The notes under the pieces are model-generated. The model saw only the letters and a list, made by a program, of their open reading frames with translations. It had not been told where the DNA came from and searched no databases. DNA of 64,000 nucleotides, from NCBI GenBank assembly GCA_964187785.1, contig OZ076416.1, forward strand, positions 24,118,001 to 24,182,000. Direction: 5' to 3'. Shown here piece by piece: positions 9,116 to 36,174 of this stretch. Every line of letters begins with the position of its first letter. The first letter of the stretch is position 1. The stretch is from Amphiscolops sp. MND2022. Taxonomy: Eukaryota. The translations under genes were made by a program, and so were the position numbers.

Positions 9116-12100
9116 GTAACGGTGGTAGTGTCAACCCTCCTAGCTGATTCGTAAAAAAAGCATCAAAAAGGACTGTTTTTGCTAAGATCGTGTCGATACC
9201 TAGCCGAAGTCCCAAGTAAGGTCGAGGGCTTCCATTGGACCATCGAACCAGCCTTGTGGGTGCCTGCTGGCAACGCGTTCCAAGTTTTGTGTCGATTGGT
9301 GCGATAGTTATTGAGAAATAGCAAAAAAACGTACCGTCCAAAACAAGGTGCAAAAAGGCAACATTTTCAAAATATTTTGGAAGGGCAGTGAAACCTTAAC
9401 TGAAAAGCGAGGACAAATTGATATCCACCGCTGTGACTCTTGCTAGTAGAGGCACTGTTAGAGAGAGGACCATACCGCTAACTCGTACCAGTACTGAAAA
9501 ATTGTGTGATAAGTGTGTACTTTGACCCCTACTGATATATAGGAGTACCGAACGTCTGTACCGCGGGCAAATCGTGTACAAGTCTCATCATCCAAATCAG
9601 CGTTCATCATCGTGTACCCACGTGTGTAAAGGATCCCCTGCCTAAGTTGGAGCAGGATCAGAACCTTGAGTGACGAAAACGAGTCACTTGTGGTTTTTTG
9701 GGGTTTTCTGAGAAAACTCAAAATTTATCATAAGTGCCTCATGATTGCCCCCACGAACGCGTAGCCACTATTCAAGTCTATTTTCAGAACTTGTGGGTCG
9801 GAGCCTACTGCGTGGGCGATTTTGAGCACGCTACGACCCCTGGAAGCATTTTTGACTTCTGCGAAGCGTGCTGAGACTGAAATTCGGTTAAGTCTCCACC
9901 GGAACGACCCAAGCGATCCCCAAGCACATCCAGTAGTTCGCCCAACCAAGCAGAGCAGCGCACGAGCTTCCTGCCTCTGAGCGGGAACAATCGAGCCTCA
10001 ACCGAGACTTTTTGGCAAATCCGTCAACAGCGCTCCTCACTTTTCGTGCATTTTCCCACGTAACCAGTGACTATGACACCATCTTTTGGGCTGACGCGGT
10101 GGCTTTTGCCAAACTGCTCACACGTCACACAACGGCCGCACTCGATACGATCGAATCTGGTACATCCCAAGTCACCGGAGCGAGCGAGACATAGGAAACA
10201 ATCTCGATTCAACGTCATTTGGAAAGTCATTTGAGCCTAAAAGTCATTTGAGCCTGCAAGATTGGCCCTCTGTGAAATCGTTAGTGACCAGTTCCTCTTT
10301 TTCAGAATAAGTGTCTGACAGAGTGACTGTCGATCAGCAGCGAAAAGAAAACCAAAAAGGTTTGGCTCTTGCCCGAAACAATTCACCTTTTCGATGGAAC
10401 TTATCCGTAGTGAACAATGGATCCAGGATACCCGAAGTGGGTTGACATCACCTCCAACGGTTGGTTATCGGCACAACTCAAACCAAACGGCGCTAGACGC
10501 CACTCGTGCAGGCGCTGGGTGCTCGAGGGCACCCGACGAGGATAGCAGTCCTGGCAGTAAAGACACTGACGCCATCCTGGAGAGTATGACTTATGTTGGC
10601 GGAACGATTTACGCCAAGTATCGCCTGGAGTCCAGCCGAAGGAAAGCCTCAGAAAAACAAAAGAAAGTGAGTCTTCCACCTTTGTGTGTGCAGAACGAAC
10701 TGAACTGCGACAATGCATCGTCGATTCGCAATGGCACCACTTCCATAGCCTCGTCACGACGATCCTCGGCATATCGCGCCGTAGAGGAGGCAGCTGCGGC
10801 AAGAACCGCAATGTTGCAGGCGGAGGCTGAAGCGAAACGAGCCCTAGCTCGCCTCGCAGATACCCGTGTTGAATGCAATGAACAGCACAAGGTCATGGTC
10901 GCGGAACTTGAGGCCATGCAAAACTCGGTAAAGGGCTACTAACCAGCAACACACTGTGCAGTCTGCGAACGGGATGCCATGGGGTATCGCCTGGAAGAGA
11001 TGAAGGACCTGTTCCTCCATTGCGAACTACGCATGGAAGTGCAGGTGGCTGAGCTCAATAACCAAATGTATACCTTGAGCACTGCTACTCAACCAGTTCA
11101 AGATAGTGAACAGGCCAAAGCAGATGAACCCACCGCATCCAACAGTAAACAGTGCCTATGCGCACCCCTAACCTATCGATAACACTGAAGACCAGCTCCA
11201 CTACGGAGCCCACAGCACCTAAGCCACAACCTAAGCCACCACAGGCAAGCAAGAAAGCCACCAAGGTACACGCATGTGCACCAAACTCGCTGAGCACCGT
11301 TCTGTTGCCACCCACGTTGTCACTTACTCAAACCTAAGATCGGGGGGTAGACCCTATGACTACCACATCTTCGACCATGGACTTGACGGACACGAAGACA
11401 ATTGCTGGATCTCACACTAGCAGCGTGGAGGGTGGCACCCATGCCACTAACAATGCGAGGACTGCCGGAACTAGCTCAATGTTCCTAACTGCAAGTGAGG
11501 GAATGCTCGCGAGCAACCCTTGCGCCAGGAGCACTCGCAAGAAAGACAACCTGAATGGAGATTTATCCATGCAGGCCACCAGGGACAGTAACGACAATTC
11601 CCTAGCCCCTAGCAAAGAAGGGGAGGTAATCTCTCCTGAGCATTTGCGATTCACTGCCGCAATTTTGAAAGCAATGTCGGAAGAATTGGCCCCTTTGTTG
11701 GCTGGCCGTGACCCGACTCAGGCCAGACCCTGTGTCTACCGAGGGTACAAGGAGGTTCCATTGATGGTTGGATCTTTGTCATGCGCCGCTAACGGCAACG
11801 CACGCAAGCCAAAGCGACCCCCGATTATCGGGCCTGGAGCATAATCGATCATCTGGAAGGTGAGGCAGGCAACTACATTATCAACAAGGCCGAGTCCGAA
11901 AGGGACACGCCAGAGAAAGTGTTCGAATTACCGGCTAGCCCGTTCGGAACTGGAATCAACCGGATGCAAGTGCTTCAAGCCTTTGGCACTCGACAACAGT
12001 CCGACAAAGAACATTGGATGCAATATTCAGATGCCTTGGATGGACTACGCAGTCAGGGTTTCCCCGATGAGCCCATCACCACAAAGCGTTATGAAATCTT

Positions 12101-15100
12101 GCAACGCTTCATTGAGGGTGTCCGCGATGCTGTCTTGCGGAGGGAACTCTCTTTCATCTATGCATCCGAGACCACCGTGACTGACCACCCCTTGTAGAAT
12201 CTGTAGAATCTCTGAGATTCACTACCAGGCAGTTGCCCACTAGACCCAAGTCCGCGCAACCATGTGATCTCCGATACGCCATGGGCTCGAGGTCTCATCC
12301 TTTCGCACCTTTACATCCCAACAAGATGGTATTGCCACAGGGAGTATTTCCCCCGCCTCCCGATAGCAATAAACCAGCCAACCCGACGGCTGTGCCACCT
12401 GCTGCGCGTTTACCGCTAGGTGCCAGTTTTAACTGTTGCCAAACGGGTCACTTTGCTCGAGATTGTCCGACCCGAGATCAGGCTCGCAAACCGGCGGGGC
12501 GCCAGAGCCCGAAACCATGAAAATTACTGCTGAGGATATGACAGATGGTCTTGCGGAAAATTACCCAGGAATCCGCCATTGTACCAATTGTGGCGAGTTT
12601 GACTACGTCGCTTCGCAGTGTGCTGAAGCTCCTGCAAACCCCTGCGACGAATTTGCTTACAATAGGTGGGCGGAAGTCGAGGCGGGTGGCGTTGCTGCCT
12701 ACACGGTGCGATTGGAAGACGACCGTGTGTTAATGCTACACCCAGCAGAGCCGCCGGCATTCTACACGCCTCTCACAATAACCTGCGGTGCCAAGCAGGT
12801 CTAAACATGCTTGAGCCAATTACTTTTAATCCTCAGGGACTAACGCTCATATCCATCCACTTGATGTTGGCTGCAGAGCAGTCGCGTCGGCCGACGTTGA
12901 CACTGGCCAAATTCTGGGTTGAGTTATCCCCTATGTACAAGCGGATGGAACTGCCTCGCCCCAAATCCATTTGTGCCAAATCCATTCGAAGCCTGTGTGG
13001 TAGTCGATGTATTTCCCCCTGGCATATGCTTGGGCCCACTGGTGAAGCGCGAATAGATGAGCGTGCAACGCTCGTTGTATTCTTATCCTTCGTAGTGCCC
13101 CATGCGGCACCTATTCCATTACACGTTTTGGTTGACACTGGCTCAGGAGTGTCCATTTTGAAATTTTCTACCTTCAACCGAGTTGTTCAGCGAGGTGCTG
13201 TTCAGATCGGTGCCATGTTAAAGCCCTACCAGATAGACCTGTACGCCGCCAACGGCACAACCATCAAAACGTTCGGGATGGCGGAACACGTGCGCTTCCA
13301 ACTGGGAGACTACGAGCTCGAAACGAACTTCGTGGTGGTGACGACGCCATGAGAGTCGAGGACTTCTTACTGGGCCGCATATTCCTTCGCGCCTACCAAG
13401 TGCTCGTTGACTTGACGTCAATGAAGATTGTTGTCCGTGCGGCAGAACGACCCGTTTGGCACCATGCACACACCCAGGTAGGTGACTCAACCTTAGCAGT
13501 TCCCGTCGTGCTAGATAGCGACCTCGTGCTGCAACTTTTTGAACGCACGGTTGTAAAGGCCATGGTGGTCACCACCAACTCAGAACCACTAGTGTTTTAA
13601 AATGTAGTGTTAAATGTCCCCATTGCGGATGCTTCACTACATAATGTTGTTTTTAGAGGACTGCGTTGCCACTGTCAGTGAGACAGGCCTCGTCTTCGTC
13701 AGCGTAATGAATCTGACGAGTAATCCACAGCGAATCCACGGCAACACCCACCTGGGAACAGTAGGCACCGTGCCTCTGGTGGACCAGGCTGTACCCCAAC
13801 GAGTGGATAAACCCAAACCACAAACTGATGTCGATACAGACCAAATTGATTTCGTTCATAAAGGTTTTGAAGAAATTGATCGATCCCGAAGCCGTCGCAA
13901 AACAACGGGACTGGGAAATTCCCCGCAACAAGACCGAAATGCAAAGCTTCTTGGGTTTTGCTAACTATTACCGCGAGTTCATTCCTTGGCATGCCAAACT
14001 GATTGCGCTCTTGCACGCCATTACTTGTATGTGTGGATCTGAACAGCAACTGGCCTTCAATGAAATAAAAAAGCACTCATCGAGGCGACTGCTCTTGCGC
14101 AGCCTGACTCTGAGGGCGAACTCATGCTAGACACGGATGCCAGCGCTGTGGCCTTTTCTGGCATACTCCACCAGTGGCAAGGCCCACCCGGGGAAAGGTG
14201 TCTCCTATCCATCGTCTATGGCAGCAAAAATTTTACTGCTATTCAAGCGAAATACGGAGCACCAAAGACAGAAATGTACGCCATAAACCACTTCATTGTA
14301 AAGAACCAGATATTTTGCCCACGAGAGTTCACTTTGATAGTGGATAAGCCAGGCACTGTCATGGTTGAAAACGAATTCGACTGATCAAGCCCTCATTGAC
14401 TGATGAATAATGGCACTGGAGAAGTACCACTTCCGTGTCGAACACCGACCTCGGACGCAACATCGCATTGCCGATGGCCTATCCAAACGAAAAATTGACT
14501 ATCGATGGCGCGAACAACAGCTCGAAAAACTACCTCCCGTGGCTGAGAGCTGGAACGTCCTGTCACAAGACGAGTATGAACGCCTACCCACTGCGCCATG
14601 ATTTGACGTACAGGGGCAGATCATTCCCAACCACCCTGACCTACCGTCACACATACAAAAACTCCAACCCACCCCTCCCAACTTGGTTTAACGCGTCATT
14701 TGTCGAACGCAACGAATCAAGCGACGAGAAAAGCAAAAAGAGGCTCTGCGGGCACCTTTTCCACCGCTTCCCCCACCGGTACTACACGCCCACGAAGACT
14801 TCTATCCCGATTATCCGGAAGACTGGATAGATGTGACGGAAGAGGCAAGCCACGATTACTTCCTACCTACGCATGTAACCAATGTCGCATCGCGTACCAC
14901 CTACGAGCTGGCCGAAACCTGCGGAGCAGTACTGCAGAACGCTCCCAACAATATTAGGCAAGCAGTATTTGCCATTCGGAGCATCAGCACTGAGCTTCAC
15001 GTGCATGCCTACACTGTTCATGGCATCAAGGGCTTGGTGCTGGCGGTGCACATTCTGCCGCTCAAAAAACTGGTCAACAACGAAAACATTGACCAAGACA

Positions 15101-16460
15101 GTTTTCCGGAAGACGTGCGTGCGTTTCCTTGTAATTATTTCAAACAGAAAAAGGAGCCATTATTCCTGAACTCCAACGGCGTCCTCTGTGCGAAGTATCC
15201 TCTATCACAGCGGCTGCTGCATGAACGGCCCCCTAAGATTGTAATGTCTCAGCTGTACCAACACGAAATTCTGTTTCATGTACACGATTCTATGGGTCAT
15301 CAAGGCATCAGCAAGATAACTCGCGTATACAAGAACGCCACACTTTGCCAGGGATCCGTCGCACCATCGGAGAATACGTCAGTCTGTGAGTCTGTGCCTA
15401 ACTTGTCAACAGGTTCGTGATAAACCTGGCGACGTTCGTTTCCACCTCAAGAACATACAGAACGGGTACTTTAACGAGTTAGTCCAGTACGACCACATGA
15501 AACTCTGTCCCTCCGATGATGGCAACACGGAGTGTCTAGTCATAATTGATCTTTTCTCCAAATTTGCCGAAGTCGTACCGTGCATATCGCACCATAGAGT
15601 ACGACGCGATAGCCACCTCTCGCCTACTCCTTCAAAAATGGTTCGCCCGTCATGGCACACCCACACGCATGCAATCTGATAACGATCCTAACCTAACTGC
15701 CGAGGTCTCAAACGAGTTTATGAAGGCCTCACAGGTTACCAAACTGACTTTTACTGCTGGTCACCCACGTACTCAGGGTCTGGTAGATCGTCAAAATCGC
15801 ATGCTCCTCACCCTACTGCGAGTCTTTTTTTCCCGTGGAATGCGCGACTGGGACAGACACCTGGATGAAGTCGTTGGCGCATACAACTCTACTCGACACG
15901 CCACAACAGGGTTTTTTCCCTACATGTTGACGCGTGGCACTGAGAAAGCGATAGTCCTCACGTACCTTTACCCTGAGTTTGCGACTCAGTCATTTCCCAC
16001 TCATGACTCCTACGTGGACCACGTGTTGGCCCGCCAACAAGAAGCCTACGTCTTGGTACGTTGCAACAACCATCAAGCTCAGTTGCGTGAAAATCTCAAA
16101 TATGACCGCGCTATACGAGTCAAGGCCTACAACCAAGGCGACCTGGTATGGGTTTTTGTCGGTATGTTCCCAAAACGGTACGCTCAAATTGATGCGCGCT
16201 TGGCGTGGCCCACGCCGTGTAGCCCACGTACTGCAAGATGGACGTGTGTACATATTTAACACCGGACAGAAGGTCCATTTGGAACGCCTAAAACCGCACC
16301 ATAGTGGCCCCACGGAGTTTGCCACTACCCCTCTGGGTACCAGCGAAATCGCCGTCGTCATGGATCCGGAGCCCGAGCGCTGGTTCCCCCGGTACCTCCC
16401 AACATCGTGTTCTAACCGTTCAATTTTGAACAAGAACCAGTGCAAATGGCCAGATGCATA
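9116..16460 (+). mobile_element. Decayed Ty3/Gypsy element (5' region, gag with two degenerate zinc knuckles, protease, RT connection, RNase H, integrase); RT catalytic core absent
   Basis: Degenerate knuckles SFNCCQTGHFARDC (~12425) and CTNCGEFDYVASQC (~12580); protease HVLVDTGSGVSIL (~13125); connection QSFLGFANYYREFIP (~13945); RNase H LDTDASAVAFSGILHQ (14124); integrase HDSMGHQG...CLTCQQV, QYDHMK, QSDN, GLVDRQNR, YNSTRHATTGF. Many stops and frameshifts. The 5' boundary is approximate. Confidence 0.9.
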
Positions 16461-16960
16461 ACTGCAGACCTGCTACTTGAACGATACGCTGTAGAGGTAG
16501 AACCAGAAGGCGTCTACAGTGCAGTCCCGCAATGGTGGTTTTAGTAACTGCTCAACGCGTTGATATGCTAGCGAACCCACAGCATTTGCCAGTGTGTTTG
16601 GAAAGTCTGAGGACTTCCAATACGGAAAACCTAATTTTATGTTTCCACCTAATCGATTGGTACACAGTTGCTTCATCAAATACCCACGAATTGATTGTTG
16701 GATGGGTGGATTCTCTGCATTTCGAGGCAGCAGTGAGCACACTAGACACAGGGGTCGGAGCAAATGTGGAGAACCAAGCGTTACCACGTTCTGTATGGCA
16801 AGAGTTAGCCGCGTTACAAGGACGCACCCCGCGTGTGTGCCTACCCCCTGACAACGGACCTGGGCGAGAAATCGTATACCCAGGTAGTCTGCGTCCAGAC
16901 ATGGTAGAATACAAATCCTATGATATCACAGACTTCTTGCAAGCCGAGCGGACTTAGAGA
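16381..16960 (+). repeat. 580-bp duplication, copy 1 (copy 2 at 17483-18062), containing a 141-codon ORF
   Basis: Near-identical sequence at offset 1102 (ORFs 16532/17634), from TGGTTCCCCCGGTACC to CGGACTTAGAGA. Confidence 0.95.
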
Positions 16961-17482: not shown

Positions 17483-18062
17483 TGGTTCCCCCGGTACCTC
17501 CCAACATCGTGTTCTAACCGTTCAATTTTGAACAAGAACCAGTGCAAATGGCCAGATGCATAACTGCAGACCTGCTACTTGAACGATACGCTGTAGAGGT
17601 AGAACCAGAAGGCGTCTACAGTGCAGTCCCGCAATGGTGGTTTTAGTAACTGCTCAACGCGTTGATATGCTAGCGAACCCACAGCATTTGCCAGTGTGTT
17701 TGGAAAGTCTGAGGACTTCCAATACGGAAAACCTAATTTTATGTTTCCACCTAATCGATTGGTACACAGTTGCTTCATCAAATACCCACGAATTGATTGT
17801 TGGATGGGTGGATTCTCTGCATTTCGAGGCAGCAGTGAGCACACTAGACACATGGGTCGGAGCAAATGTGGAGAACCAAGCGTTACCACGTTCTGTATGG
17901 CAAGAGTTAGCCGCGTTACAAGGACGCACCCCGCGTGTAAGCCTACCCCCTGACAACGGACCTGGGCGAGAAATCGTATACCCAGGTAGTCTGCGTCCAG
18001 ACATGGTAGAATACAAATCCTATGATATCACAGACTTCTTGCAAGCCGAGCGGACTTAGAGA
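17483..18062 (+). repeat. 580-bp duplication, copy 2
   Basis: Matches 16381-16960 with only a few substitutions. Confidence 0.95.
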
Positions 18063-18437: not shown

Positions 18438-21400
18438 AAATAGGTACCAAACCACTTTAGTGTCATCTCCAGCAGCGATACAGCAGACGGCACGAACTCT
18501 GCTGTGAACAACGGTCTCTGATTTATGTTGTTTTGCTTAGCGGCGACTTAAGCGCTTCCTTTTCTTTCCTTGATCAACCTCACTTATAAATCCTTGCTAG
18601 TGATGCCTTAAGCAGCCCCTTAATTTAGTTGTTTCATTATTACTTAACGTTTGGTTATTCTCTGTCGGGTTCCCTTAAGGAGCTCGTGGTTTTTATGCAC
18701 TGCCTAACAATCACCAACATTACATGTCTAATATTTACTTGTTTTTAGACCCATGATAAGATGGCTTTCCATCACACGGTCTCTTCAGCAATGCCTGTCA
18801 ATGCCTCGCCAAATCATGACGCTGCTCGTAATGGCATTTCGTTAGCAGCCATGGCCGGCATAACTGCCCTCTTGGACCAACTAGAGACACATCCCACGTC
18901 ATCTCCAGCAGCGATACAGCAGATGGCACGAACTCTGCTGTGAACAACGGTCTCTTATTTATGTTGTTTTGCTTAGCGGCGACTTAAGCACTTCCTTTTC
19001 TTTCCTTGATCAACCTCACTTATAAATCCTTGCTAGTGATGCCTTAAGCAGCCCCTTAATTTAGTTGTTTCATTAATACTTAACGTTTGGTTATTCTCTG
19101 TCGGGTTCCCTTAAGGAGCTCGTGGTTTTTATGCACTGCCTAACAATCACCAACATTACATGTCTAATATTTACTTGTTTTTAGACCCATGATAAGATGG
19201 CTTTCCATCACACGGTCTCTTCAGCAATGCCTGTCAATGCCTCGCCAAATCATGACGCTGCTCGTAATGGCATTTCGTTAGCAGCCATGGCCGGCATAAC
19301 TGCCCTCTTGGACCAACTAGAGACACATCCCACGTTATCGAGCTTGGCTGTCTGTTGTAGCCGATGCGGCTGAGCATAAACGTACTATGACTTGCCGGAA
19401 AGGAGTATGGGATGGCTATGACCTGACTCACCCATTTCCGGATGACCGTTCCACCGCGTGGCACCAGTGTGCACACCACTACCGAACAAGAGGCTACGCT
19501 GCGCTACCAGTAGCTAACGCACCAGTGCCACAACTGTTGCCGCCGGCTCACTTGGTGATTCAACCACAAGTGCAGACACCGCCGCAACCTCCTCCGCAGC
19601 CAATTTATTTGCCGAAAGTACAAGCGGTGGTGCTTCTATCCGCGACACCTTGCGTAGCACCCTACGCTAGTGCTCCAGCCGCTCAGGCACCACACATGAT
19701 TTTACGAACCACTAGTGCAACCTCCCAGTAGGAGCTCGCGGTCTCCAGCCAAATGTCCAGCGCAAGAGTGCAGTCGGCTCAGTCTTCGGCGCCATCATCA
19801 GCTCGCTTCGTAACTGCAACAAACATGGCTCACAGATCACCGAATGAGCAAGCTGTTATCCAGGCCCTCCAAACCGTTGGCAACTATCCGGAATCCAAGG
19901 ACTTCTTGGAGACTGTGTCCCGCAGACTTCCAGGCCTACAAGCCTTACTTGATGCGCCTGTGCAGCTCGAAGGAGGGCTGCATGACAACAAGGGACAATC
20001 AAGGTCCAGGACCCAGCACCAGAACACAACGGGCGCCATCGCCAATACCTGGGTTGTCGCCTGTACCCGATGAAGAGCTCAGACGCAAGAGAGCTTCGCC
20101 GCATGTATTGTCTAGAACGGCAAGAACCAACAACAGTCCGACGAGTCGCCCTCCTCCGGACAAAAAAACAATGTGCTACGTCCGGTAGTAATCCCAGAGC
20201 CCCCTATGGTGGGATACCAAGGAATTCCCGAACCCCAGATGGCAATGATTGAAGTGATAGAAGGATACGCACCCAGCCATTCTTCTGTGCTCGAGGGCAC
20301 AGAGATCTCAGCACCATCCAGTTCTGCAGTGCCACAACTGCGAGAACTGCACCGAAGGTACCTCCCTACTCTCCGCCGTCTGAGAAAATAGGTACCAAAC
20401 CACTTTAGTGTCATCTCCAGCAGAGATACAGCAGATGGCACGAACTCTGCTGTGAACAACGGTCTCTGATTTATGTTGTTTTGCTTAGCGGCGACTTAAG
20501 CGCTTCCTTTTCTTTCCTTGATCAACCTCACTTATAAATCCTTGCTAGTGATGCCTTAAGCAGCCCCTTAATTTAGTTGTTTCATTAATACTTAACGTTT
20601 GGTTATTCTCTGTCGGGTTCCCTTAAGGAGCTCGTGGTTTTTATGCACTGCCTAACAATCACCAACATTACATGTCTAATATTTACTTGTTTTTAGACCC
20701 ATGATAAGATGGCTTTCCATCACACGGTCTCTTCAGCAATGCCTGTCAATGCCTCGCCAAATCATGACGCTGCTCGTAATGGCATTTCGTTAGCAGCCAT
20801 GGCCGGCATAACTGCCCTCTTGGACCAACTAGAGACACATCCCACGTCATCTCCAGCAGCGATACAGCAGATGGCACGAACTCTGCTGTGAACAACGGTC
20901 TCTTATTTATGTTGTTTTGCTTAGCGGCGACTTAAGCGCTTCCTTTTCTTTCCTTGATCAACCTCACTTATAAATCCTTGCTAGTGATGCCTTAAGCAGC
21001 CCCTTAATTTAGTTGTTTCATTAATACTTAACGTTTGGTTATTCTCTGTCGGGTTCCCTTAAGGAGCTCGTGGTTTTTATGCACTGCCTAACAATCACCA
21101 ACATTACATGTCTAATATTTACATGTCTTTAGACCCATGATAAGATGGCTTTCCATCACACGGTCTCTTCAGCAATGCCTGTCAATGCCTCGCCAAATCA
21201 TGACGCTGCTCGTAATGGCATTTCGTTAGCAGCCATGGCCGTCATAACTGCCCTCTTGGACCAACTAGAGACACATCCCACGTTATCGAGCTTGGCTGTC
21301 TGTTGTAGCCGATGCGGCTGAGCATAAACGTACTATGACTTGCCGGAAAGGAGTATGGGATGGCTATGACCTGACTCACCCATTTCCGGATGACCGTTCC

Positions 21401-24400
21401 ACCGCGTGGCCCCAGTGTGCACACCACTACCGAACCAGAGGCTACGCTGCGCTACCAGTAGCTAACGCACCAGTGCCACAACTGTTGCCGCCGGCTCACT
21501 TGGTGATTCAACCACAAGTGCAGACACCGCCGCAACCTCCTCCGCAGCCAATTTATTTGCCGAAAGTACAAGCGGTGGTGCTTCTATCCGCGACATCTTG
21601 CGTAGCACCCTACGCTAGTGCTCCAGCCGCTCAGGCACCACACATGATTTTACGAACCACTAGTGCAACCTCCCAGTAGGAGCTCGCGGTCTCCAGCCAA
21701 ATGTCCAGCGCAAGAGTGCAGTCGGCTCAGTCTTCGGCGCCATCATCAGCTCGCTTCGTAACTGCAACAAACATGGCTCACAGATCACCGAGTGAGCAAG
21801 CTGTTATCCAGGCCCTCCAAACCGTTGGCAACTATCCGGAATCCAAGGACTTCTTGGAGACTGTGTCCCGCAGACTTCCAGGCCTACAAGCCTTACTTGA
21901 TGCGCCTGTGCAGCTCGAGGGAGGGCTGCATGACAACAAGGGACAATCAAGGTCCAGGACCCAGCACCAGAACACAACGGGCGCCATCGCCAATACCTGG
22001 GTTGTCGCCTGTACCCGATGAAGAGCTCAGACGCAAGAGAGCTTCGCCGCATGTATTGTCTAGAACGGCAAGAACCAACAACAGTCCGACGAGTCGCCCT
22101 CCTCCGGACAAAAAAACAATGTGCTACGTCCGGTAGTAATCCCAGAGCCCCCTATGGTGGGATACCAAGGAATTCCCGAACCCCAGATGGCAATGATTGA
22201 AGTGATAGAAGGATACGCACCCAGCCATTCTTCTGTGCTCGAGGGCACAGAGATCTCAGCACCATCCAGTTCTGCAGTGCCACAACTGCGAGAACTGCAC
22301 CGAAGGTACCTCCCTACTCTCCGCCGTCTGAGAAAATAGGTACCAAACCACTTTAGTGTCATCTCCAGCAGAGATACAGCAGATGGCACGAACTCTGCTG
22401 TGAACAACGGTCTCTGATTTATGTTGTTTTGCTTAGCGGCGACTTAAGCGCTTCCTTTTCTTTCCTTGATCAACCTCACTTATAAATCCTTGCTAGTGAT
22501 GCCTTAAGCAGCCCCTTAATTTAGTTGTTTCATTATTACTTAACGTTTGGTTATTCTCTGTCGGGTTCCCTTAAGGAGCTCGTGGTTTTTATGCACTGCC
22601 TAACAATCACCAACATTACATGTCTAATATTTGTTTGTTTTTAGACCCATGATAAGATGGCTTTCCATCACACGGTCTCTTCAGCAATGCCTGTCAATGC
22701 CTCGCCAAATCATGACGCTGCTCGTAATGGCATTTCGTTAGCAGCCATGGCCGGCATAACTGCCCTCTTGGACCAACTAGAGACACATCCCACGTTATCG
22801 AGCTTGGCTGTCTCTGTTGTAGCCGATGCGGCTGAGCATAAACGTACTATGACTTGCCGGAAAGGAGTATGGGATGGCTATGACCTGACTCACCCATTTC
22901 CGGATGACCGTTCCACCGCGTGGCACCAGTGTGCACACCACTACCGAACAAGAGGCTACGCTGCGCTACCAGTAGCTAACGCACCAGTGCCACAACTGTT
23001 GTCGCCGGCTCACTTGGTGATTCAACCACAAGTGCAGACACCGCCGCAACCTCCTCCGCAGCCAATTTATTTGCCGAAAGTACAAGCGGTGGTGCTTCTA
23101 TCCGCGACACCTTGCGTAGCACCCTACGCTAGTGCTCCAGCCGCTCAGGCACCACACATGATTTTACGAACCACTAGTGCAACCTCCCAGTAGGAGCTCG
23201 CGGTCTCCAGCCAAATGTCCAGCGCAAGAGTGCAGTCGGCTCAGTCTTCGGCGCCATCATCAGCTCGCTTCGTAACTGCAACAAACATGGCTCACAGATC
23301 ACCGAGTGAGCAAGCTGTTATCCAGGCCCTCCAAACCGTTGGCAACTATCCGGAATCCAAGGACTTCTTGGAGACTGTGTCCCGCAGACTTCCAGGCCTA
23401 CAAGCCTTACTTGATGCGCCTGTGCAGCTCGAGGGAGGGCTGCATGACAACAAGGGACAATCAAGGTCCAGGACCCAGCACCAGAACACAACGGGCGCCA
23501 TCGCCAATACCTGGGTTGTCGCCTGTACCCGATGAAGAGCTCAGACGCAAGAGAGCTTCGCCGCATGTATTGTCTAGAACGGCAAGAACCAACAACAGTC
23601 CGACGAGTCGCCCTCCTCCGGACAAAAAAACAATGTGCTACGTCCGGTAGTAATCCCAGAGACCCCTATGGTGGGATACCAAGGAATTCCCGAACCCCAG
23701 ATGGCAATGATTGAAGTGATAGAAGGATACGCACCCAGCCATTCTTCTGTGCTCGAGGGCACAGAGATCTCAGCACCATCCAGTTCTGCAGTGCCACAAC
23801 TGCGAGAACTGCACCGAAGGTACCTCCCTACTCTCCGCCGTCTGAGAAAATAGGTACCAAACCACTTTAGTGTCATCTCCAGCAGAGATACAGCAGATGG
23901 CACGAACTCTGCTGTGAACAACGGTCTCTGATTTATGTTGTTTTGCTTAGCGGCGACTTAAGCGCTTCCTTTTCTTTCCTTGATCAACCTCACTTATAAA
24001 TCCTTGCTAGTGATGCCTTAAGCAGCCCCTTAATTTAGTTGTTTCATTAATACTTAACGTTTGGTTATTCTCTGTCGGGTTCCCTTAAGGAGCTCGTGGT
24101 TTTTATGCACTGCCTAACAATCACCAACATTACATGTCTAATATTTACTTGTTTTTAGACCCATGATAAGATGGTTTTCCATCACACGGTCTCTTCAGCA
24201 ATGCCTGTCAATGCCTCGCCAAATCATGACGCTGCTCGTAATGGCATTTCGTTAGCAGCCATGGCCGGCATAACTGCCCTCTTGGACCAACTAGAGACAC
24301 ATCCCACGTCATCTCCAGCAGCGATACAGCAGATGGCACGAACTCTGCTGTGAACAACGGTCTCTTATTTATGTTGTTTTGCTTAGCGGCGACTTAAGCG

Positions 24401-27400
24401 CTTCCTTTTCTTTCCTTGATCAACCTCACTTATAAATCCTTGCTAGTGATGCCTTAAGCAGCCCCTTAATTTAGTTGTTTCATTAATACTTAACGTTTGG
24501 TTATTCTCTGTCGGGTTTCCTTAAGGAGCTCGTGGTTTTTATGCACTGCCTAACAATCACCAACATTACATGTCTAATATTTACATGTCTTTAGACCCAT
24601 GATAAGATGGCTTTCCATCACACGGTCTCTTCAGCAATGCCTGTCAATGCCTCGCCAAATCATGACGCTGCTCGTAATGGCATTTCGTTAGCAGCCATGG
24701 CCGTCATAACTGCCCTCTTGGACCAACTAGAGACACATCCCACGTTATCGAGCTTGGCTGTCTGTTGTAGCCGATGCGGCTGAGCATAAACGTACTATGA
24801 CTTGCCGGAAAGGAGTATGGGATGGCTATGACCTGACTCACCCATTTCCGGATGACCGTTCCACCGCGTGGCCCCAGTGTGCACACCACTACCGAACCAG
24901 AGGCTACGCTGCGCTACCAGTAGCTAACGCACCAGTGCCACAACTGTTGCCGCCGGCTCACTTGGTGATTCAACCACAAGTGCAGACACCGCCGCAACCT
25001 CCTCCGCAGCCAATTTATTTGCCGAAAGTACAAGCGGTGGTGCTTCTATCCGCGACACCTTGCGTAGCACCCTACGCTAGTGCTCCAGCCGCTCAGGCAC
25101 CACACATGATTTTACGAACCACTAGTGCAACCTCCCAGTAGGAGCTCGCGGTCTCCAGCCAAATGTCCAGCGCAAGAGTGCAGTCGGCTCAGTCTTCGGC
25201 GCCATCATCAGCTCGCTTCGTAACTGCAACAAACATGGCTCACAGATCACCGAGTGAGCAAGCTGTTATCCAGGCCCTCCAAACCGTTGGCAACTATCCG
25301 GAATCCAAGGACTTCTTGGAGACTGTGTCCCGCAGACTTCCAGGCCTACAAGCCTTACTTGATGCGCCTGTGCAGCTCGAGGGAGGGCTGCATGACAACA
25401 AGGGACAATCAAGGTCCAGGACCCAGCACCAGAACACAACGGGCGCCATCGCCAATACCTGGGTTGTCGCCTGTACCCGATGAAGAGCTCAGACGCAAGA
25501 GAGCTTCGCCGCATGTATTGTCTAGAACGGCAAGAACCAACAACAGTCCGACGAGTCGCCCTCCTCCGGACAAAAAAACAATGTGCTACGTCCGGTAGTA
25601 ATCCCAGAGCCCCCTATGGTGGGATACCAAGGAATTCCCGAACCCCAGATGGCAATGATTGAAGTGATAGAAGGATACGCACCCAGCCATTCTTCTGTGC
25701 TCGAGGGCACAGAGATCTCAGCACCATCCAGTTCTGCAGTGCCACAACTGCGAGAACTGCACCGAAGGTACCTCCCTACTCTCCGCCGTCTGAGAAAATA
25801 GGTACCAAACCACTTTAGTGTCATCTCCAGCAGAGATACAGCAGATGGCACGAACTCTGCTGTGAACAACGGTCTCTGATTTATGTTGTTTTGCTTAGCG
25901 GCGACTTAAGCGCTTCCTTTTCTTTCCTTGATCAACCTCACTTATAAATCCTTGCTAGTGATGCCTTAAGCAGCCCCTTAATTTAGTTGTTTCATTATTA
26001 CTTAACGTTTGGTTATTCTCTGTCGGGTTCCCTTAAGGAGCTCGTGGTTTTTATGCACTGCCTAACAATCACCAACATTACATGTCTAATATTTGTTTGT
26101 TTTTAGACCCATGATAAGATGGCTTTCCATCACACGGTCTCTTCAGCAATGCCTGTCAATGCCTCGCCAAATCATGACGCTGCTCGTAATGGCATTTCGT
26201 TAGCAGCCATGGCCGGCATAACTGCCCTCTTGGACCAACTAGAGACACATCCCACGTTATCGAGCTTGGCTGTCTCTGTTGTAGCCGATGCGGCTGAGCA
26301 TAAACGTACTATGACTTGCCGGAAAGGAGTATGGGATGGCTATGACCTGACTCACCCATTTCCGGATGACCGTTCCACCGCGTGGCACCAGTGTGCACAC
26401 CACTACCGAACAAGAGGCTACGCTGCGCTACCAGTAGCTAACGCACCAGTGCCACAACTGTTGTCGCCGGCTCACTTGGTGATTCAACCACAAGTGCAGA
26501 CACCGCCGCAACCTCCTCCGCAGCCAATTTATTTGCCGAAAGTACAAGCGGTGGTGCTTCTATCCGCGACACCTTGCGTAGCACCCTACGCTAGTGCTCC
26601 AGCCGCTCAGGCACCACACATGATTTTACGAACCACTAGTGCAACCTCCCAGTAGGAGCTCGCGGTCTCCAGCCAAATGTCCAGCGCAAGAGTGCAGTCG
26701 GCTCAGTCTTCGGCGCCATCATCAGCTCGCTTCGTAACTGCAACAAACATGGCTCACAGATCACCGAGTGAGCAAGCTGTTATCCAGGCCCTCCAAACCG
26801 TTGGCAACTATCCGGAATCCAAGGACTTCTTGGAGACTGTGTCCCGCAGACTTCCAGGCCTACAAGCCTTACTTGATGCGCCTGTGCAGCTCGAGGGAGG
26901 GCTGCATGACAACAAGGGACAATCAAGGTCCAGGACCCAGCACCAGAACACAACGGGCGCCATCGCCAATACCTGGGTTGTCGCCTGTACCCGATGAAGA
27001 GCTCAGACGCAAGAGAGCTTCGCCGCATGTATTGTCTAGAACGGCAAGAACCAACAACAGTCCGACGAGTCGCCCTCCTCCGGACAAAAAAACAATGTGC
27101 TACGTCCGGTAGTAATCCCAGAGCCCCCTATGGTGGGATACCAAGGAATTCCCGAACCCCAGATGGCAATGATTGAAGTGATAGAAGGATACGCACCCAG
27201 CCATTCTTCTGTGCTCGAGGGCACAGAGATCTCAGCACCATCCAGTTCTGCAGTGCCACAACTGCGAGAACTGCACCGAAGGTACCTCCCTACTCTCCGC
27301 CGTCTGAGAATGTATCTGGTACTGTGGTGACCAGGGACGCCAATCGAATCTGGCAAGTAGCCCCACGTCTAAAAGACATTCAGTTCAGAGATAGACAGCG

Positions 27401-30400
27401 TGTGCCCCCCTCTAGTACGGACCAAGCACAGCTAATAAAGTTATCGATTGTTGCCCACTTATCCAGCTAATTGCGCGCTTTTGGTGTTGACATCGGTGAG
27501 CAAGCCTGGGAGCAACGCGTAATAACGCGTCTGGCTCTCGCCCACAACAACTATTTGCGACCCATGCAGAAAAACCTACACAAGCAATTCAATGCAAGGT
27601 ACACTCTGCAAGCTGGCGAGACCTGGGAGACCAACAGCGCGTACCCCAGAAGCTTGGAATCGCTGAAACCGATCTCAAAGAACCTGATTCGGCGCACGCG
27701 ATACTGCGTGATGATGGATTCCACGGTCCAATGCGACCTACAATATGACAACATTGTTCCTGATGGCACGAACTCTGCTGTGAACAACGGTCTCTGATTT
27801 ATGTTGTTTTGCTTAGCGGCGACTTAAGCGCTTCCTTTTCTTTCCTTGATCAACCTCACTTATAAATCCTTGCTAGTGATGCCTTAAGCAGCCCCTTAAT
27901 TTAGTTGTTTCATTATTACTTAACGTTTGGTTATTCTCTGTCGGGTTCCCTTCAGGAGATCGTGGTTTTTATGCACTGCCTAACAATCACCAACATTACA
28001 TGTCTAATATTTACTTGTTTTTAGACCCATGATAAGATGGCTTTCCATCATACGGTCTCTTCAGCAATGCCTGTCAATGCCTCGCCAAATCATGACGCTG
28101 CTCGTAATGGCATTTCGTTAGCAGCCATGGCCGGCATAACTGCCCTCTTGGACCAACTAGAGACACATCCCACGTTATCGAGCTTGGCTGTCTCTGTTGT
28201 AGCCGATGCGGCTGAGCATAAACGTACTATGACTTGCCGGAAAGGAGTATGGGATGGCTATGACCTGACTCACCCATTTCCGGATGACCGTTCCACCGCG
28301 TGGCACCAGTGTGCACACCACTACCGAACAAGAGGCTACGCTGCGCTACCAGTAGCTAACGCACCAGTGCCACAACTGTTGCCGCCGGCTCACTTGGTGA
28401 TTCAACCACAAGTGCAGACACCGCCGCAACCTCCTCCGCAGCCAATTTATTTGCCGAAAGTACAAGCGGTGGTGCTTCTATCCGCGACACCTTGCGTAGC
28501 ACCCTACGCTAGTGCTCCAGCCGCTCAGGCACCACACATGATTTTACGAACTACTAGTGCAACCTCCCAGTAGGAGCTCGCGGTCTCCAGCCAAATGTCC
28601 AGCGCAAGAGTGCAGTCGGCTCAGTCTTCGGCGCCATCATCAGCTCGCTTCGTAACTGCAACAAACATGGCTCACAGATCACCGAGTGAGCAAGCTGTTA
28701 TCCAGGCCCTCCAAACCGTTGGCAACTATCCGGAATCCAAGGACTTCTTGGAGACTGTGTCCCGCAGACTTCCAGGCCTACAAGCCTTACTTGATGCGCC
28801 TGTGCAGCTCGAGGGAGGGCTGCATGACAACAAGGGACAATCAAGGTCCAGGACCCAGCACCAGAACACAACGGGCGCCATCGCCAATACCTGGGTTGTC
28901 GCCTGTACCCGATGAAGAGCTCAGACGCAAGAGAGCTTCGCCGCATGTATTGTCTAGAACGGCAAGAACCAACAACAGTCCGACGAGTCGCCCTCCTCCG
29001 GACAAAAAAACAATGTGCTACGTCCGGTAGTAATCCCAGAGCCCCCTATGGTGGGATACCAAGGAATTCCCGAACCCCAGATGGCAATGATTGAAGTGAT
29101 AGAAGGATACGCACCCAGCCATTCTTCTGTGGTCGAGGGCACAGAGATCTCAGCACCATCCAGTTCTGCAGTGCCACAACTGCGAGAACTGCACCGAAGG
29201 TACCTCCCTACTCTCCGCCGTCTGAGAAAATAGGTACCAAACCACTTTAGTGTCATCTCCAGCAGCGATACAGCAGATGGCACGAACTCTGCTGTGAACA
29301 ACGGTCTCTGATTTATGTTGTTTTGCTTAGCGGCGACTTAAGCGCTTCCTTTTCTTTCCTTGATCAACCTCACTTATAAATCCTTGCTAGTGATGCCTTA
29401 AGCAGCCCCTTAATTTAGTTGTTTCATTATTACTTAACGTTTGGTTATTCTCTGTCGGGTTCCCTTAAGGAGCTCGTGGTTTTTATGCACTGCCTAACAA
29501 TCACCAACATTACATGTCTAATATTTACTTGTTTTTAGACCCATGATAAGATGGCTTTCCATCACACGGTCTCTTCAGCAATGCCTGTCAATGCCTCGCC
29601 AAATCATGACGCTGCTCGTAATGGCATTTCGTTAGCAGCCATGGCCGGCATAACTGCCCTCTTGGACCAACTAGAGACACATCCCACGTTATCGAGCTTG
29701 GCTGTCTCTGTTGTAGCCGATGCGGCTGAGCATAAACGTACTATGACTTGCCGGAAAGGAGTATGGGATGGCTATGACCTGACTCACCCATTTCCGGATG
29801 ACCGTTCCACCGCGTGGCACCAGTGTGCACACCACTACCGAACAAGAGGCTACGCTGCGCTACCAGTAGCTAACGCACCAGTGCCACAACTGTTGCCGCC
29901 GGCTCACTTGGTGATTCAACCACAAGTGCAGACACCGCCGCAACCTCCTCCGCAGCCAATTTATTTGCCGAAAGTACAAGCGGTGGTGCTTCTATCCGCG
30001 ACACCTTGCGTAGCACCCTACGCTAGTGCTCCAGCCGCTCAGGCACCACACATGATTTTACGAACCACTAGTGCAACCTCCCAGTAGGAGCTCGCGGTCT
30101 CCAGCCAAATGTCCAGCGCAAGAGTGCATTCGGCTCAGTCTTCGGCGCCATCATCAGCTCGCTTCGTAACTGCAACAAACATGGCTCACAGATCACCGAG
30201 TGAGCAAGCTGTTATCCAGGCCCTCCAAACCGTTGGCAACTATCCGGAATCCAAGGACTTCTTGGAGACTGTGTCCCGCAGACTTCCAGGCCTACAAGCC
30301 TTACTTGATGCGCCTGTGCAGCTCGAGGGAGGGCTGCATGACAACAAGGGACAATCAAGGTCCAGGACCCAGCACCAGAACACAACGGGCGCCATCGCCA

Positions 30401-31197
30401 ATACCTGGGTTGTCGCCTGTACCCGATGAAGAGCTCAGACGCAAGAGAGCTTCGCCGCATGTATTGTCTAGAACGGCAAGAACCAACAACAGTCCGACGA
30501 GTCCCCCTCCTCCGGACAAAAAAACAATGTGCTACGTCCGGTAGTAATCCCAGAGCCCCCTATGGTGGGATACCAAGGAATTCCCGAACCCCAGATGGCA
30601 ATGATTGAAGTGATAGAAGGATACGCACCCAGTCATTCTTCTGTGCTCGAGGGCACAGAGATCTCAGCACCATCCAGTTCTGCAGTGCCACAACTGCGAG
30701 AACTGCACCGAAGGTACCTCCCTACTCTCCGCCGTCTGAGAATGTATCTGGTACTGTGGTGACCAGGGACGCCAATCGAATCTGGCAAGTAGCCCCACGT
30801 CTAAAAGACATTCAGTTCAGAGATAGACAGCGTGTGCCCCCCTCTAGTACGGACCAAGCACAACTAATAAAGTTATCGATTGTTGCCCACTTATCCAGCT
30901 AATTGCGCGCTTTTGGTGTTGACATCGGTGAGCAAGCCTGGGAGCAACGCGTAATAACGCGTCTGGCTCTCGCCCACAACAACTATTTGCGACCCATGCA
31001 GAAAAACCTACACAAGCAATTCAATGCAAGGTACACTCTGCAAGCTGGCGAGACCTGGGAGACCAACAGCGCGTACCCCAGAAGCTTGGAATCGCTGAAA
31101 CCGATCTCAAAGAACCTGATTCGGCGCACGCGATACTGCGTGATGATGGATTCCACGGTCCAATGCGACCTACAATATGACAACATTGTTCCTGATG
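18438..31197 (+). repeat. Modular tandem array A-A-B-A-A-B-A-B-A-A-B-A-B-C-A'-B-A-B-C (A 436 bp x10, B ~1.05-1.08 kb x7, C ~455 bp x2)
   Basis: A starts (GTCATCTCCAGC): 18462, 18898, 20410, 20846, 22358, 23872, 24308, 25820, ~27762 (5'-truncated), 29252. B starts (GTTATCGAGC): 19334, 21282, 22794, 24744, 26256, 28174, 29688. C starts (TGTATCTGG): 27311, 30743. The periods 1948, 1514 and 3462 are mirrored in the ORF track. Confidence 0.97.
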
Positions 31198-33780
31198 TAA
31201 TGGTGGTGACAATGCTTTTTCGGGGCTGCCAGAAATGGCAAAAGTAGCCCTAGCAAAGTTTGCCCCGGAGCTCGAGGGCTCCCAAAAGGAACCACCCCCC
31301 AAGCGGTTCATCTTTGCCAATCTACTCGATCACATGGCTTGCGAAGGTGTATTGCAAAACCTGCTGAGAATGTTGGGCGAGATGTCGAATCGCGAAGCCG
31401 CCCGAAACGAAGTTGCGCGGGATTTGCACCAAGTGGCGACAGCCATAGAACGGACTGCAGAAATGCTCCGCACTAATCTGGAAACCCCTGCGCTCTTCAT
31501 GTCGCCTCCAGGCATGCTGTGCTGGGGAGGCGTATTCCAGCAGTTTGTCTAAATGTTGACGGAAATTTGCCTCGCGAGGAACATTGAGTTCTACCTGTGC
31601 GCGTCTGAACTGCGCGTTGGACACGATGATCCGCGCCCAGCGGTGCTATTTGTGCACGCATATCTGGCCGCGATATAACGCCTGCTACAACCATAAAGCC
31701 CGCTGAGCGTGGTGCTGCCCAACTAACCTGGGACCACGCAATGTACCACGACCGACCATGGAATGCGTCTGGGTAAATTGACCTTTGACGAAGAGGGTAA
31801 CCGCCTTCTTCCTGAAGCCACACTAGCAGAGCGCGAGAATCTGCGCAAGTACAACTGGTTGGTGCGCAATACCCATCCCACCACAGTGAAGGCAGATTTG
31901 GCGGCTGAGTCAACAGTGAGGTGGAGCGTACAATACAGCAGATACATTTTGCTGAAAACACTGAAACAATCAAATTGCCCCTGGGTTTGAGGCACATTGT
32001 AGCCCAGGAAGCGGTAAAATTGGACCAGTCTATACAAGCCAGCGAAACTACCTGTGGTGAGTGGTACCAAGACCGGCTGGCGACAGTCACCCTCCAAATG
32101 GCAGCTCGAGCGCTGTCTGTGTCATTTCCTGCCCTGCTCATGAGTTTTTGTCTAGGTTGGAACTTGGACGTCGTCACTGACGAGTTCGCCCTGAGTCAGG
32201 CGCAAGTCAGAAACTGACTGACCCACTGGAAAATGATGACTATCAATGAGGTGCTAGCTCTCGCGCTAGCTTTGGGACCGACAAAGTTTGTGGCTGGTCC
32301 ACTAGCCATCGTCGTGGACCTAGTAGCCGCAGGAGGCCTGCTCGAGTTTTTACTTACCTTGTTATGGCTCAAGGAAAATTGGACAGCCTAATTGGCCTTG
32401 GCGGAGTGCTGTTCATGCAGAACAAGCAGAACTACACGGAACCTCTGCTCAAAATGAGAGCCTCCTTCTTGCAGCACTACTAATCGCTGGTCCACGCGTC
32501 TCGCCTGTTCTTAGGCGTAGTTCCATCGCAACCGTTACACAATCCTGATACTCAAATTCACCGCAAAACGCCGGGTTTTCTATGCCGCAACAGCTTGCAG
32601 ACCTCACGCTAGCTGAAGTAGATGATTTGGTCCCTGTAAAAGCTCTCGTCCTAATCCCGATTTTGGACCCCTGGGACTACTGCGGTACCCTACTAAGCCT
32701 GTGTCCATGGCCGTACACGTGGCCACGGTTTCAATCTTCACCTACCTCCAGGTTATTCCTCTCATTGATACAAGTACGTAGTAATAGAACTTTTGAGTGG
32801 TGAAGTCCCACAGGTGTACACCACTATTAAAACTGAACAACAGGCGGAAGAGAATCTGATGGGAATCACACCAAAAGCGACTGTGCTACCAAGAAAGTAT
32901 GGCCCTGTGAATTGGTACAACGCTCCCGTCGACTTGAATGGGCAACCATTCCGATTCCCGTGATCATCCGAAACCCTCCGCAAAATGATCAATGCTAGCT
33001 TGAGGGCTAGCCCCAATACGAGTTCGAACTACCACTTCAAATTCATACGGGTTCCCAATCGCTATTGGAAGGAGCCTGTGGGTTACCCACGTGCGCGACC
33101 CATAGCGCGAAACAAAGAATATCTCCACCACCAGCTACAGCACTTGAACTTCGCCCGCGTTCCTCAGTGGATAGAAGTGGCGGCGCAAGTGCGAGGCCGC
33201 AACCTTTCTCGCCGCAACAATTGTAGCTTCGGTACAATATAACCCAGCCTGGCGTCCACAAGGCAAACTGACTATGTCTGGTGACATGCCCTTGGTATTG
33301 CTAAACATTGTGAACTCTGTCCTAGGCCCCGAACTGCGAGCGAAATGGTCTGCAATTTCGAAGTATGGAAAAGAGCTTGCGGGCTCTGGAAGCAATCTGG
33401 TTTGGTATCCAAACTTGTGGCAACTTGCTGCTGCTACCAGAGCTGACACCGAGCGTGCCCAGAAGTACGCGCCGCAGCCATCACAGTCAACTGCTGCGCC
33501 GACTATGGCAATGTCATTAGAACAACCACTGACTGTAAAAGCCGCGCCAGTGGAGGAGGTTGCAGAAGACACAGCCATGCCTGTGACCATTGACCAGTCT
33601 GGGGAGCATGCCGCCGAACTCACACCCAACGCAGTATTAGTGGACCCCATTGGAGAGTTGACCGTTGACACGGACGCAGAGACTGTGGTTCCGTCCCCGT
33701 CTAGACGTGCCTCTGTGCGCGATGCCTCTCCACCACGAGAGATATCACCCCGCAGTCGGAACAAGTCGGCTGTACAATAA
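30743..33780 (+). pseudogene. Fragmented accessory ORF cluster downstream of the Gypsy integrase, unknown products
   Basis: Chain of same-strand, GC-richer ORF pieces (30903-31247, 31235-31552, 31763-31990, 31921-32217, 32582-32803, 32985-33242, 33274-33780) separated by stops and frameshifts. No recognisable domain. An AATAAA follows at ~33775. Confidence 0.5.
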
Positions 33781-35945: not shown

Positions 35946-36174
35946 TGGCTAAAAACCCAAGCAGATTTGCACATGACTAAGAACTCTGTTTTCTTGACAA
36001 CTACCGGGTGACTTGCAAGAAGAATTTATAGCTAGCTAAAACGTTGTTGGCTGAAAAATAGTAGGAAACGAGTAGTAGGCCTGAAATCTGAAGAGAGCCA
36101 GTAAAGTCCAAAGGGACCTTCTTTAAATTTTTTGACCTATAAGTAATTTCTTAGTAAGAATATTGACATGGGAT

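Follow-up and report, generated by a model that had tools for sequence, protein, structure and literature searches.

A 3,462-bp repeat within a decayed Ty3/Gypsy element of an acoel worm is probably the product of a single recent tandem duplication

Introduction

Tandem arrays derived from Gypsy elements have been reviewed (PMC12628747). The maize arrays CRM1TR and CRM4TR are of this kind and are described as having been started by illegitimate junctions, followed by conversion or unequal exchange (PMC3648361), as are Ogre 3' repeats (PMC7004042). The former paper also cites centromeric repeats of potato, which range from 979 bp to 5.4 kb, and a Sobo monomer of 4.7 kb. Tandem structures of long terminal repeats (LTRs) are reported to be common in plants (PMC11899658), and a higher-order repeat is defined in PMC8122249 as a block that is amplified and homogenized. 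The precedents that we found were plant systems and reviews; a literature search that covered mainly open-access papers found no report of arrays inside Gypsy elements of acoels. According to PMC6451197, Gypsy elements make up 28% of another acoel genome.

Here we describe an array in the genome of the acoel Amphiscolops sp. MND2022. The window that we analyzed is a stretch of 64,000 nucleotides (assembly GCA_964187785.1, contig OZ076416.1, positions 24,118,001 to 24,182,000 of the forward strand). All coordinates are positions in this window unless stated otherwise, and all are from one assembly. The window contains a decayed Ty3/Gypsy element with an internal array of 12,760 bp (18438-31197, + strand), most of which had been described, in a reading of the sequence alone, as a higher-order repeat with a 3,462-bp unit and possibly a nascent macrosatellite. 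We find that the phasing of variants in the two 3,462-bp blocks is real in the assembly. We think it probable, with good confidence, that one recent tandem duplication produced the repeat; homologous exchange or repair, out of register and involving two B modules (defined below), is its likely mechanism. The small array to which this duplication was added likely grew through duplications of chromosomal DNA inside the dead element.

Results

The array is an irregular string of four kinds of module. We cut the modules from a self-comparison and a motif search of the window. The order is J A1 A2 B1 / J A3 A4 B2 J A5 B3 / J A6 A7 B4 J A8 B5 / C1 A9' B6 J A10 B7 C2, with ten A, seven B and two C modules. 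J is a 24-bp piece that had not been separated in the sequence-only reading. Among 24 family relatives that we fetched and mapped on the window, most have J-A-B-C (~1.97 kb) once. The modules and blocks, in which ORF stands for open reading frame, are:

18462..18897, + strand: module A (436 bp), first copy; contains, in this order, AT-rich non-coding sequence, a site resembling a splice acceptor, and the start of an extra ORF
18898, 20410, 20846, 22358, 23872, 24308, 25820 and 29252: starts of other A copies
27762: start of A9', in which the first 24 bp of A are missing
19334..20386, + strand: module B (1,053 or 1,055 bp), first copy; the low-complexity N-terminal part of the extra ORF
21282, 22794, 24744, 26256, 28174 and 29688: starts of other B copies
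27311..27765 and 30743-31197, + strand: module C (455 bp), copies C1 and C2, with 1 difference between them
20387..23848, + strand: first copy of the whole block, J A3 A4 B2 J A5 B3 (3,462 bp)
23849..27310, + strand: second copy of the whole block, J A6 A7 B4 J A8 B5 (3,462 bp)

B1, B2 and B4 are each 2 bp shorter than the remaining B copies. The block limits first proposed (20410-23871 and 23872-27310) identified a real repeat and missed its edges: each true unit is led by a J, and the second block as first given spans only 3,439 bp.

The two blocks share variants that are specific to position. In a motif search of the window, all seven markers that had been listed were at the copies named for them and nowhere else. 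The six substitution markers each occur exactly twice, 3,462 bp apart: TTACATGTCTTTAG (21119/24581) and GCCGTCATA (21238/24700) only in A4 and A7, GCCCCAGTG (21409/24871) and CGAACCAGAG (21431/24893) only in B2 and B4, ATTTGTTTGTTT (22629/26091) only in A5 and A8, and TTGTCGCCG (22999/26461) only in B3 and B5. The seventh, CTGTCTGTTG, is the 2-bp deletion that marks B1, B2 and B4 (19348/21296/24758). Two of the markers are multi-base changes that copy neighboring sequence. In A4/A7 (21123-21127 / 24585-24589) the change copies TTACATGTCT, whose source is 14 bases upstream, and in A5/A8 (22633-22634 / 26095-26096) it copies TTGTTT, whose source is just downstream. Both resemble local template switches and both are inside the acceptor-like tract.

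The two blocks are much closer to each other than are other copies in the array. The self-comparison bore out the description of two A-A-B-A-B blocks with common variants: in register, they differ at 4 of 3,463 sites (20713, 21056, 21596 and 23662 in the first copy), with no indel. This is a divergence of 0.12%, compared to 0.94% for other A pairs and 0.47% for other B pairs; at the age of those pairs 22 changes would be expected between the blocks (Poisson P=3e-6). When copies were shuffled over the slots, the observed distance was matched in 1 of 200,000 permutations. Thus, as in a higher-order repeat, the units are more alike than the modules inside them (0.12% versus 0.47-0.94%). The proposal that module trees would group copies by their position in the unit held in part. 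A4 grouped with A7 (98/94), B2 grouped with B4 (93/92), and A5 and A8 were identical, whereas A3/A6 and B3/B5 were mutual nearest neighbors that did not form resolved clades.

The array could have grown by as few as five tandem duplications. We used a minimum-duplication search over module strings, starting from one J-A-B-C. The minimum was five, and all 16 of the shortest histories contain one duplication of a ten-token (3,462-bp) block. Together with the divergence data, this agrees with the earlier proposal that the array grew in steps and that a block of several modules was duplicated late. Three junctions are new, and one interval is the candidate site of the last exchange:

18886..18911, + strand: junction A>A, with 2-bp microhomology (GT) and 5/6 bases alike; reused at 20846 and 24308
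20374..20401, + strand: junction B>J, with 1-bp microhomology; reused at 22334, 23848, 25796 and 29228
27753..27778, + strand: junction C>A, with 4-bp microhomology (GATG); single copy
23434..23848, + strand: candidate exchange interval for the 3,462-bp duplication, the tail of B3, homologous to 19972-20386 in B1; wider if the marker alleles are younger

Genome-wide junction searches covered A>A and B>J; C>A is known from the array itself. A>A had three exact matches in the genome and B>J had five, all in the array, and B>J had no match in the JGI metagenome collection. Both junctions are therefore foreign to the parent family, as expected of a tandem array derived from a retrotransposon. The same array was not found at other loci: in genome searches, close matches to modules A and B and exact matches to the A>A and B>J junctions were at this locus only.

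Divergence between copies is graded: 1.3% for the LTR pair, 0.94% for A, 0.5% for the pair labeled X, 0.47% for B, 0.2% for C and 0.12% for the last block, which is about four times younger than most other pairs. A 580-bp piece that was copied 1.1 kb upstream belongs to the same age class as the array:

16381..16960, + strand: extra, non-adjacent copy of 17483-18062 (580 bp, 3 differences); relatives have no copy here

Exchange between copies appears to have contributed to the array. A3 and A6 are mosaic, with the 5' allele of A5/A8 at 20424 and the 3' allele of A2/A4 at 20588, and this is the only pair of sites at which the four-gamete test fails. We take this mosaicism to be the mark of exchange or conversion between copies. 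B3 carries the B5 allele at column 209 (equivalent to 23002) and does not have the private alleles of B1 at 19844 and 19971.

A plausible order of events is as follows. J-A-B would have been duplicated, followed by A'-B-J-A-B-C and then by A. Exchange inside A would then have made the second A-A-B unit, which would account for A3 having the 5' allele of A5, and A4 and B2 having the marks of A2 and B1. Finally, exchange between two B tails (19972-20386 versus 23434-23848) would have copied A-A-B-A-B. The three steps that formed junctions may have occurred at breaks, by end-joining or by template switching during replication. The steps that made the 3,462-bp block and the second A-A-B unit reuse old junctions and need no new one, and were presumably driven by homology. 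We estimated, with two simple weightings, that 30-58% of the possible out-of-register exchanges in the array before its last step would duplicate a unit with at least two B modules, and therefore the 'higher-order' pattern needs no special mechanism.

The array is inside a Ty3/Gypsy element. The proposed Gypsy origin was upheld by the domains of relatives and by the mapping of the 24 relatives on the window. The family element measures ~17.5-19 kb. It has LTRs of 710 bp (TGTAA...TTACA), a gag that includes a zinc knuckle, reverse transcriptase (RT), RNase H, integrase, a long frame after integrase, and an extra ORF of ~1,400 codons. Pfam domains in relatives (zf-CCHC, RVT_1, RT_RNaseH and a weak rve) map on the window in the order gag-RT-RNase H-integrase. 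The TG...CA LTRs, zinc knuckle, order of domains, and purine tract before the 3' LTR are those of a Ty3/Gypsy element. The LTR ends were identical at ~40 scored loci of 1,703 LTR candidates. The parts in the window are:

6481..7188, + strand: upstream LTR (708 bp, TGTAA...TTACA)
11572..16380, + strand: decayed gag and pol (RNase H, integrase), with a zinc knuckle in relatives
29551..33780, + strand: extra ORF downstream of pol, ~1,400 codons long and decayed, with many stops and broken frames
34709..35416, + strand: downstream LTR, with 9 differences from the upstream LTR

The element had already died when the array began to grow. It has lost its RT core at ~13877-13883, where relatives are 0.9-1.0 kb longer, and gag, pol and the extra ORF are split into many frame pieces with stops. 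The same three stops are in all seven B copies, and decay therefore preceded amplification. We found no 4-5-bp target-site duplication at this copy and no primer-binding site, the 235-bp region after the LTR in relatives having been replaced here. The purine-rich tract ends at 34578, and the 130 bp between it and the downstream LTR are not found there in relatives. In genome searches, the only matches to module B at 99% or more were its seven copies, followed by matches at no more than 81% that were spread over all large contigs of the 1.07-Gb genome; module A had its ten copies and then matches at 80%. The monomer is thus collinear with a segment that dispersed relatives hold once, as in other retrotransposon-derived arrays. 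Overall, the copy in the window is 65-80% identical to other family members. The earlier description of "very young Gypsy-derived sequence" is contradicted by the missing RT core, the stops common to the seven B copies, and nearest family members that are only ~80% identical. The window element is best read as a decayed ~19-kb Ty3/Gypsy element in which only the duplications are young.

The LTRs have their own history. Both are in the same non-LTR flanks, with 131 bp before and 555 bp after (6350-7744 and 34578-35957). The LTRs and near flanks differ by ~1.5%, and the distal 364 bp of the common flank by ~11%. We rejected dating of the insertion from the LTR pair (1.3%) on the basis of these common flanks and their ~11% different distal part. 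The non-LTR flanks indicate that the LTR pair was copied or converted after insertion; LTR conversion has been described (PMC7251063). A genome search found no match elsewhere that would give the origin of the common flanks. The internal region looks as if it had entered between duplicate copies of a flanked solo LTR, and a template switch from one allele to another is a possible route. The locus has been rearranged several times at the DNA level. Several family members have LTR-internal-LTR-internal tandem forms, or are internally deleted forms without pol that keep the extra-ORF region.

The array amplifies the 5' third of the extra ORF. The N-terminal third corresponds to B + C. With tblastn, the 1,426-aa relative P0035 was covered from residue 39 to 1425 in nine frame pieces. 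In relatives, the extra ORF is ~1,430 aa and conserved, with clusters of 491 and 581 sequences (P0034 and P0035, respectively, the latter standing for 581). It had no Pfam family, no sequence match in PDB and no Atlas match of at least 0.9. The predicted model of relative P0037 had a mean pLDDT of 38 and one alpha/beta domain (137-267) that is located downstream of the array. A fold search with this low-confidence model gave no Foldseek match at E<=0.001, and several SGNH chains at Z 5-6 that were not above other folds. An extra ORF with an SGNH/GDSL fold is described for Gypsy elements in the case of Vesta-like ORF3 (PMC5408684). Each A copy contains a putative splice acceptor, given here for the last A:

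29518..29553, + strand: branch-point-like CTAAT, a T-rich tract, AG (29537-29538), then the extra-ORF ATG (29551)

Of 15 matches in relatives, 14 have TTTAG at this position; the pattern used to find them was anchored solely on the coding side. The site may be used for splicing.

Young direct duplications are common in this genome. We searched 20-kb sample windows (20 with family members and 30 random) for direct duplications of at least 300 bp and at least 97% identity. They were present in 9 of the 20 family windows (one being an LTR pair only) and in 7 of the 30 random windows, and were adjacent or cut by the window edge in 7 and 4 of these, respectively. The enrichment in family windows over random DNA was not significant (9/20 versus 7/30, Fisher P=0.13). 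Identities form a continuous range from 97% to 100%. Four longer loci include 5.4-kb and ~10-kb duplications at 99.9%, a 2.3-kb duplication at 99.05%, and an older triplication in the closest relative. In the relative closest to the window copy, a 5.4-kb tandem duplication (99.9%) lies further on from the triplication considered below. Duplications in relatives are scattered through the element, in pol, in the extra ORF and at the LTR end, and do not support a hotspot at J-A-B-C, which we had considered.

Other features of the window and its surroundings are as follows. Two long open frames for UDP-glycosyltransferases (UGTs), at 37557-39095 (- strand) and 61547-62845 (+ strand), are 6 kb and 30 kb beyond the array and have ~70% DNA identity over 480 bp; the nearest named relatives of one of them are from an acoel worm (34% identity). 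A Copia element at 46713-55481 (gag, integrase and RT by Pfam) has three near-identical internal copies: 50064-51006 = 51850-52792 (99.9%), 51005-51854 = 54632-55481 (100%) and 46713-46938 = 53552-53777 (100%). A near-perfect palindrome (97 bp, 92.8%) was found by self-comparison at 39981-40077. An unrelated 84-bp tandem repeat is at window coordinates 85257-88141, with ~35 copies, 77% matches, and longer periods of 166-825 bp. Inverted copies at window coordinates -36044..-25781 and 138949..149212, beside 200-N gaps, are probably an unmerged contig overlap, with possible contig misorientation.

Discussion

Several explanations other than a single recent duplication can be weighed against the data. 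The last block, or part of the array, could be a false duplication in which two haplotypes or overlapping reads were joined in tandem. The block identity of 99.88% is near the limit of assembly, and the assembly does hold duplicated contig ends, in that the start of the window's contig and the next contig share a 10.26-kb, 100.0% identical inverted overlap with both ends beside gaps. However, that false-looking overlap is 100.0% identical, unlike the 3,462-bp blocks, which are separated by four substitutions and no indel, and the contig of ~175 kb that holds the array has no gaps, so that any gap is over 54 kb away from it. Variation in the whole array consists of 26 variable columns (14 transitions and 12 transversions) and one 2-bp indel, without variation in homopolymer length, and three new junctions and mosaic copies are not expected from a misjoin. 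An artefact of this kind seems improbable to us. We are similarly doubtful, and slightly more so, that the locus is a nascent macrosatellite with a true higher-order repeat, still expanding and homogenized in 3,462-bp units. The greater likeness of units than of inner modules (0.12% versus 0.5-0.9%) would fit, as would the recent date of the latest event and the size of the array, the largest sampled, and retrotransposon-derived satellites with kb-scale monomers are known (PMC3648361). The J-A-B unit (1.5 kb) and the blocks (1.9 and 3.5 kb) are also within the macrosatellite range of monomers of at least 1 kb. But a macrosatellite is a regular array of at least ten like units, and here there are seven irregular A(A)B units that are broken by C. 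The 3,462-bp unit does not have the many copies of a unit that homogenizes an array: its two copies, which one duplication explains, cover 6.9 of 12.8 kb, and 46% of the array (18438-20386 and 27311-31197) is outside the period. There is a single locus, the 100 kb to either side of it hold no long satellite array, and the UGT genes at 37.6-39.1 and 61.5-62.8 kb are intact. Any out-of-register exchange would be expected to yield a multi-module duplicate. With two copies from one event, no homogenization to the 3,462-bp period, one locus, and a multi-module product expected from 30-58% of exchanges, the terms higher-order satellite and nascent macrosatellite overstate what is there.

The remaining explanations would place the origin of the repeats in the retrotransposon life cycle or attribute their persistence to selection. 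If the repeats had been made during reverse transcription by aberrant strand transfers, as proposed for the 3' repeats of Ogre/Tat elements, and inserted as such, their location between pol and the 3' LTR, as in Ogre (PMC7004042), and the many internal rearrangements in family members would be accounted for. However, copy divergence is graded from 0.1% to 0.9%, and the steps were therefore separate in time; the window copy does not have the RT core or the primer-binding region after the upstream LTR; and there is no second genome copy with A>A or B>J junctions, the nearest relatives being ~80% identical. There is very little chance, in our view, that the repeats arose in this way. We give even less credence to an amplification kept by selection, for example as a source of small RNAs against the family or of extra splice acceptors. 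The amplified A does hold the site that is conserved in the family (14/15 matches), and the family is large (1,703 LTR candidates). Against this, the copy is only 65-80% identical to other members, two multi-base changes (A4/A7 and A5/A8) are inside the acceptor-like tract itself, and duplications in other members are anywhere in the element. The array would be neutral debris without function, and is most likely neutral.

We favor a single recent tandem duplication in a small array that had already grown in steps, although several points weigh against this reading. Site 20588 can be explained only with one more conversion or with recurrent change, the repair pathway is a putative one, and copy number rests on one assembly. 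The closest relative (G000:C2:95,416,960-95,420,672) carries its own, independent triplication (94-96%) of a 1.1-kb piece that overlaps J and the 5' part of A, a hint that the region may be somewhat prone to duplication. The array is the largest in the sample: units of at least 300 bp reached no more than three copies (read by eye) in the 24 family loci, the 30 random windows and the 200 kb of flanking DNA that we examined. Five events at one spot may thus be more than chance alone would give. By an informal argument and without a formal test, one such extreme is not surprising among hundreds of family members (1,703 LTR candidates). We regard the pattern as ordinary for this duplication-rich genome.

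The high background of young tandem duplications is a more interesting lead than the array itself. A bolder view is that the genome is a natural tandem duplicator, with young head-to-tail duplications of 0.3-5 kb or longer in 4 of 30 random and 7 of 20 family windows, and that the locus is a five-step snapshot of a still-growing macrosatellite, bootstrapped in a dead retroelement, in which higher-order structure appeared at the fifth event. We regard this view as rather unlikely. Under the single-duplication reading that we prefer, the locus is a clean worked example of a known process, in which an array begins with a few microhomology junctions, its blocks are then copied by homologous exchange, and 'higher-order' structure appears after a handful of events without a mechanism specific to satellites. 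If the array is still changing among individuals, or if the duplication background is real and unusual, this would be a natural animal system for measuring the start of a macrosatellite.

The array shares different properties with several known systems. Like arrays of the CRM1TR/CRM4TR type, it is wholly derived from Ty3/Gypsy sequence, with an illegitimate start, homology-driven growth, kb-scale monomers, and a single locus or few loci. As described, those arrays come from the LTR and untranslated region, are in or near centromeres and are much longer, whereas the array in the window comes from the start of an internal extra ORF, is 12.8 kb with three nested junctions, and has no sign of a centromeric setting. 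Like the 3' tandem repeats of Ogre/Tat elements that seed satellites, it belongs to a large Gypsy element and is located after pol and before the 3' LTR (PMC7004042). In Ogre, short arrays are described as a standing feature of many dispersed elements, whereas in the present family the segment is single in most relatives, and the element was already dead when the array formed. The head-to-tail, kb-scale duplications with short junction homology also resemble the polymerase-theta-dependent duplications in C. elegans brc-1 mutants (PMC7368036). Those are reported as rare single events in repair mutants, mostly of 10-20 kb, whereas the events in the window are 0.4-3.5 kb and nested, and may or may not belong to such a pathway. 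As in higher-order repeats of the alpha-satellite type and the macrosatellites D4Z4 and DXZ4, the blocks are more alike than their inner modules (PMC8122249), and the ~3.5-kb unit is near the size of D4Z4 (3.3 kb). Those arrays have tens to thousands of copies and modules that are ~70% alike, as reported, compared to two copies and modules that are 99% alike here; in the window there is no homogenization, and the modules are of two unrelated kinds (A and B). The array is thus a real, well-resolved new instance of the known type of retrotransposon-derived tandem array, and works like a first step towards a higher-order repeat rather than a member of that class.

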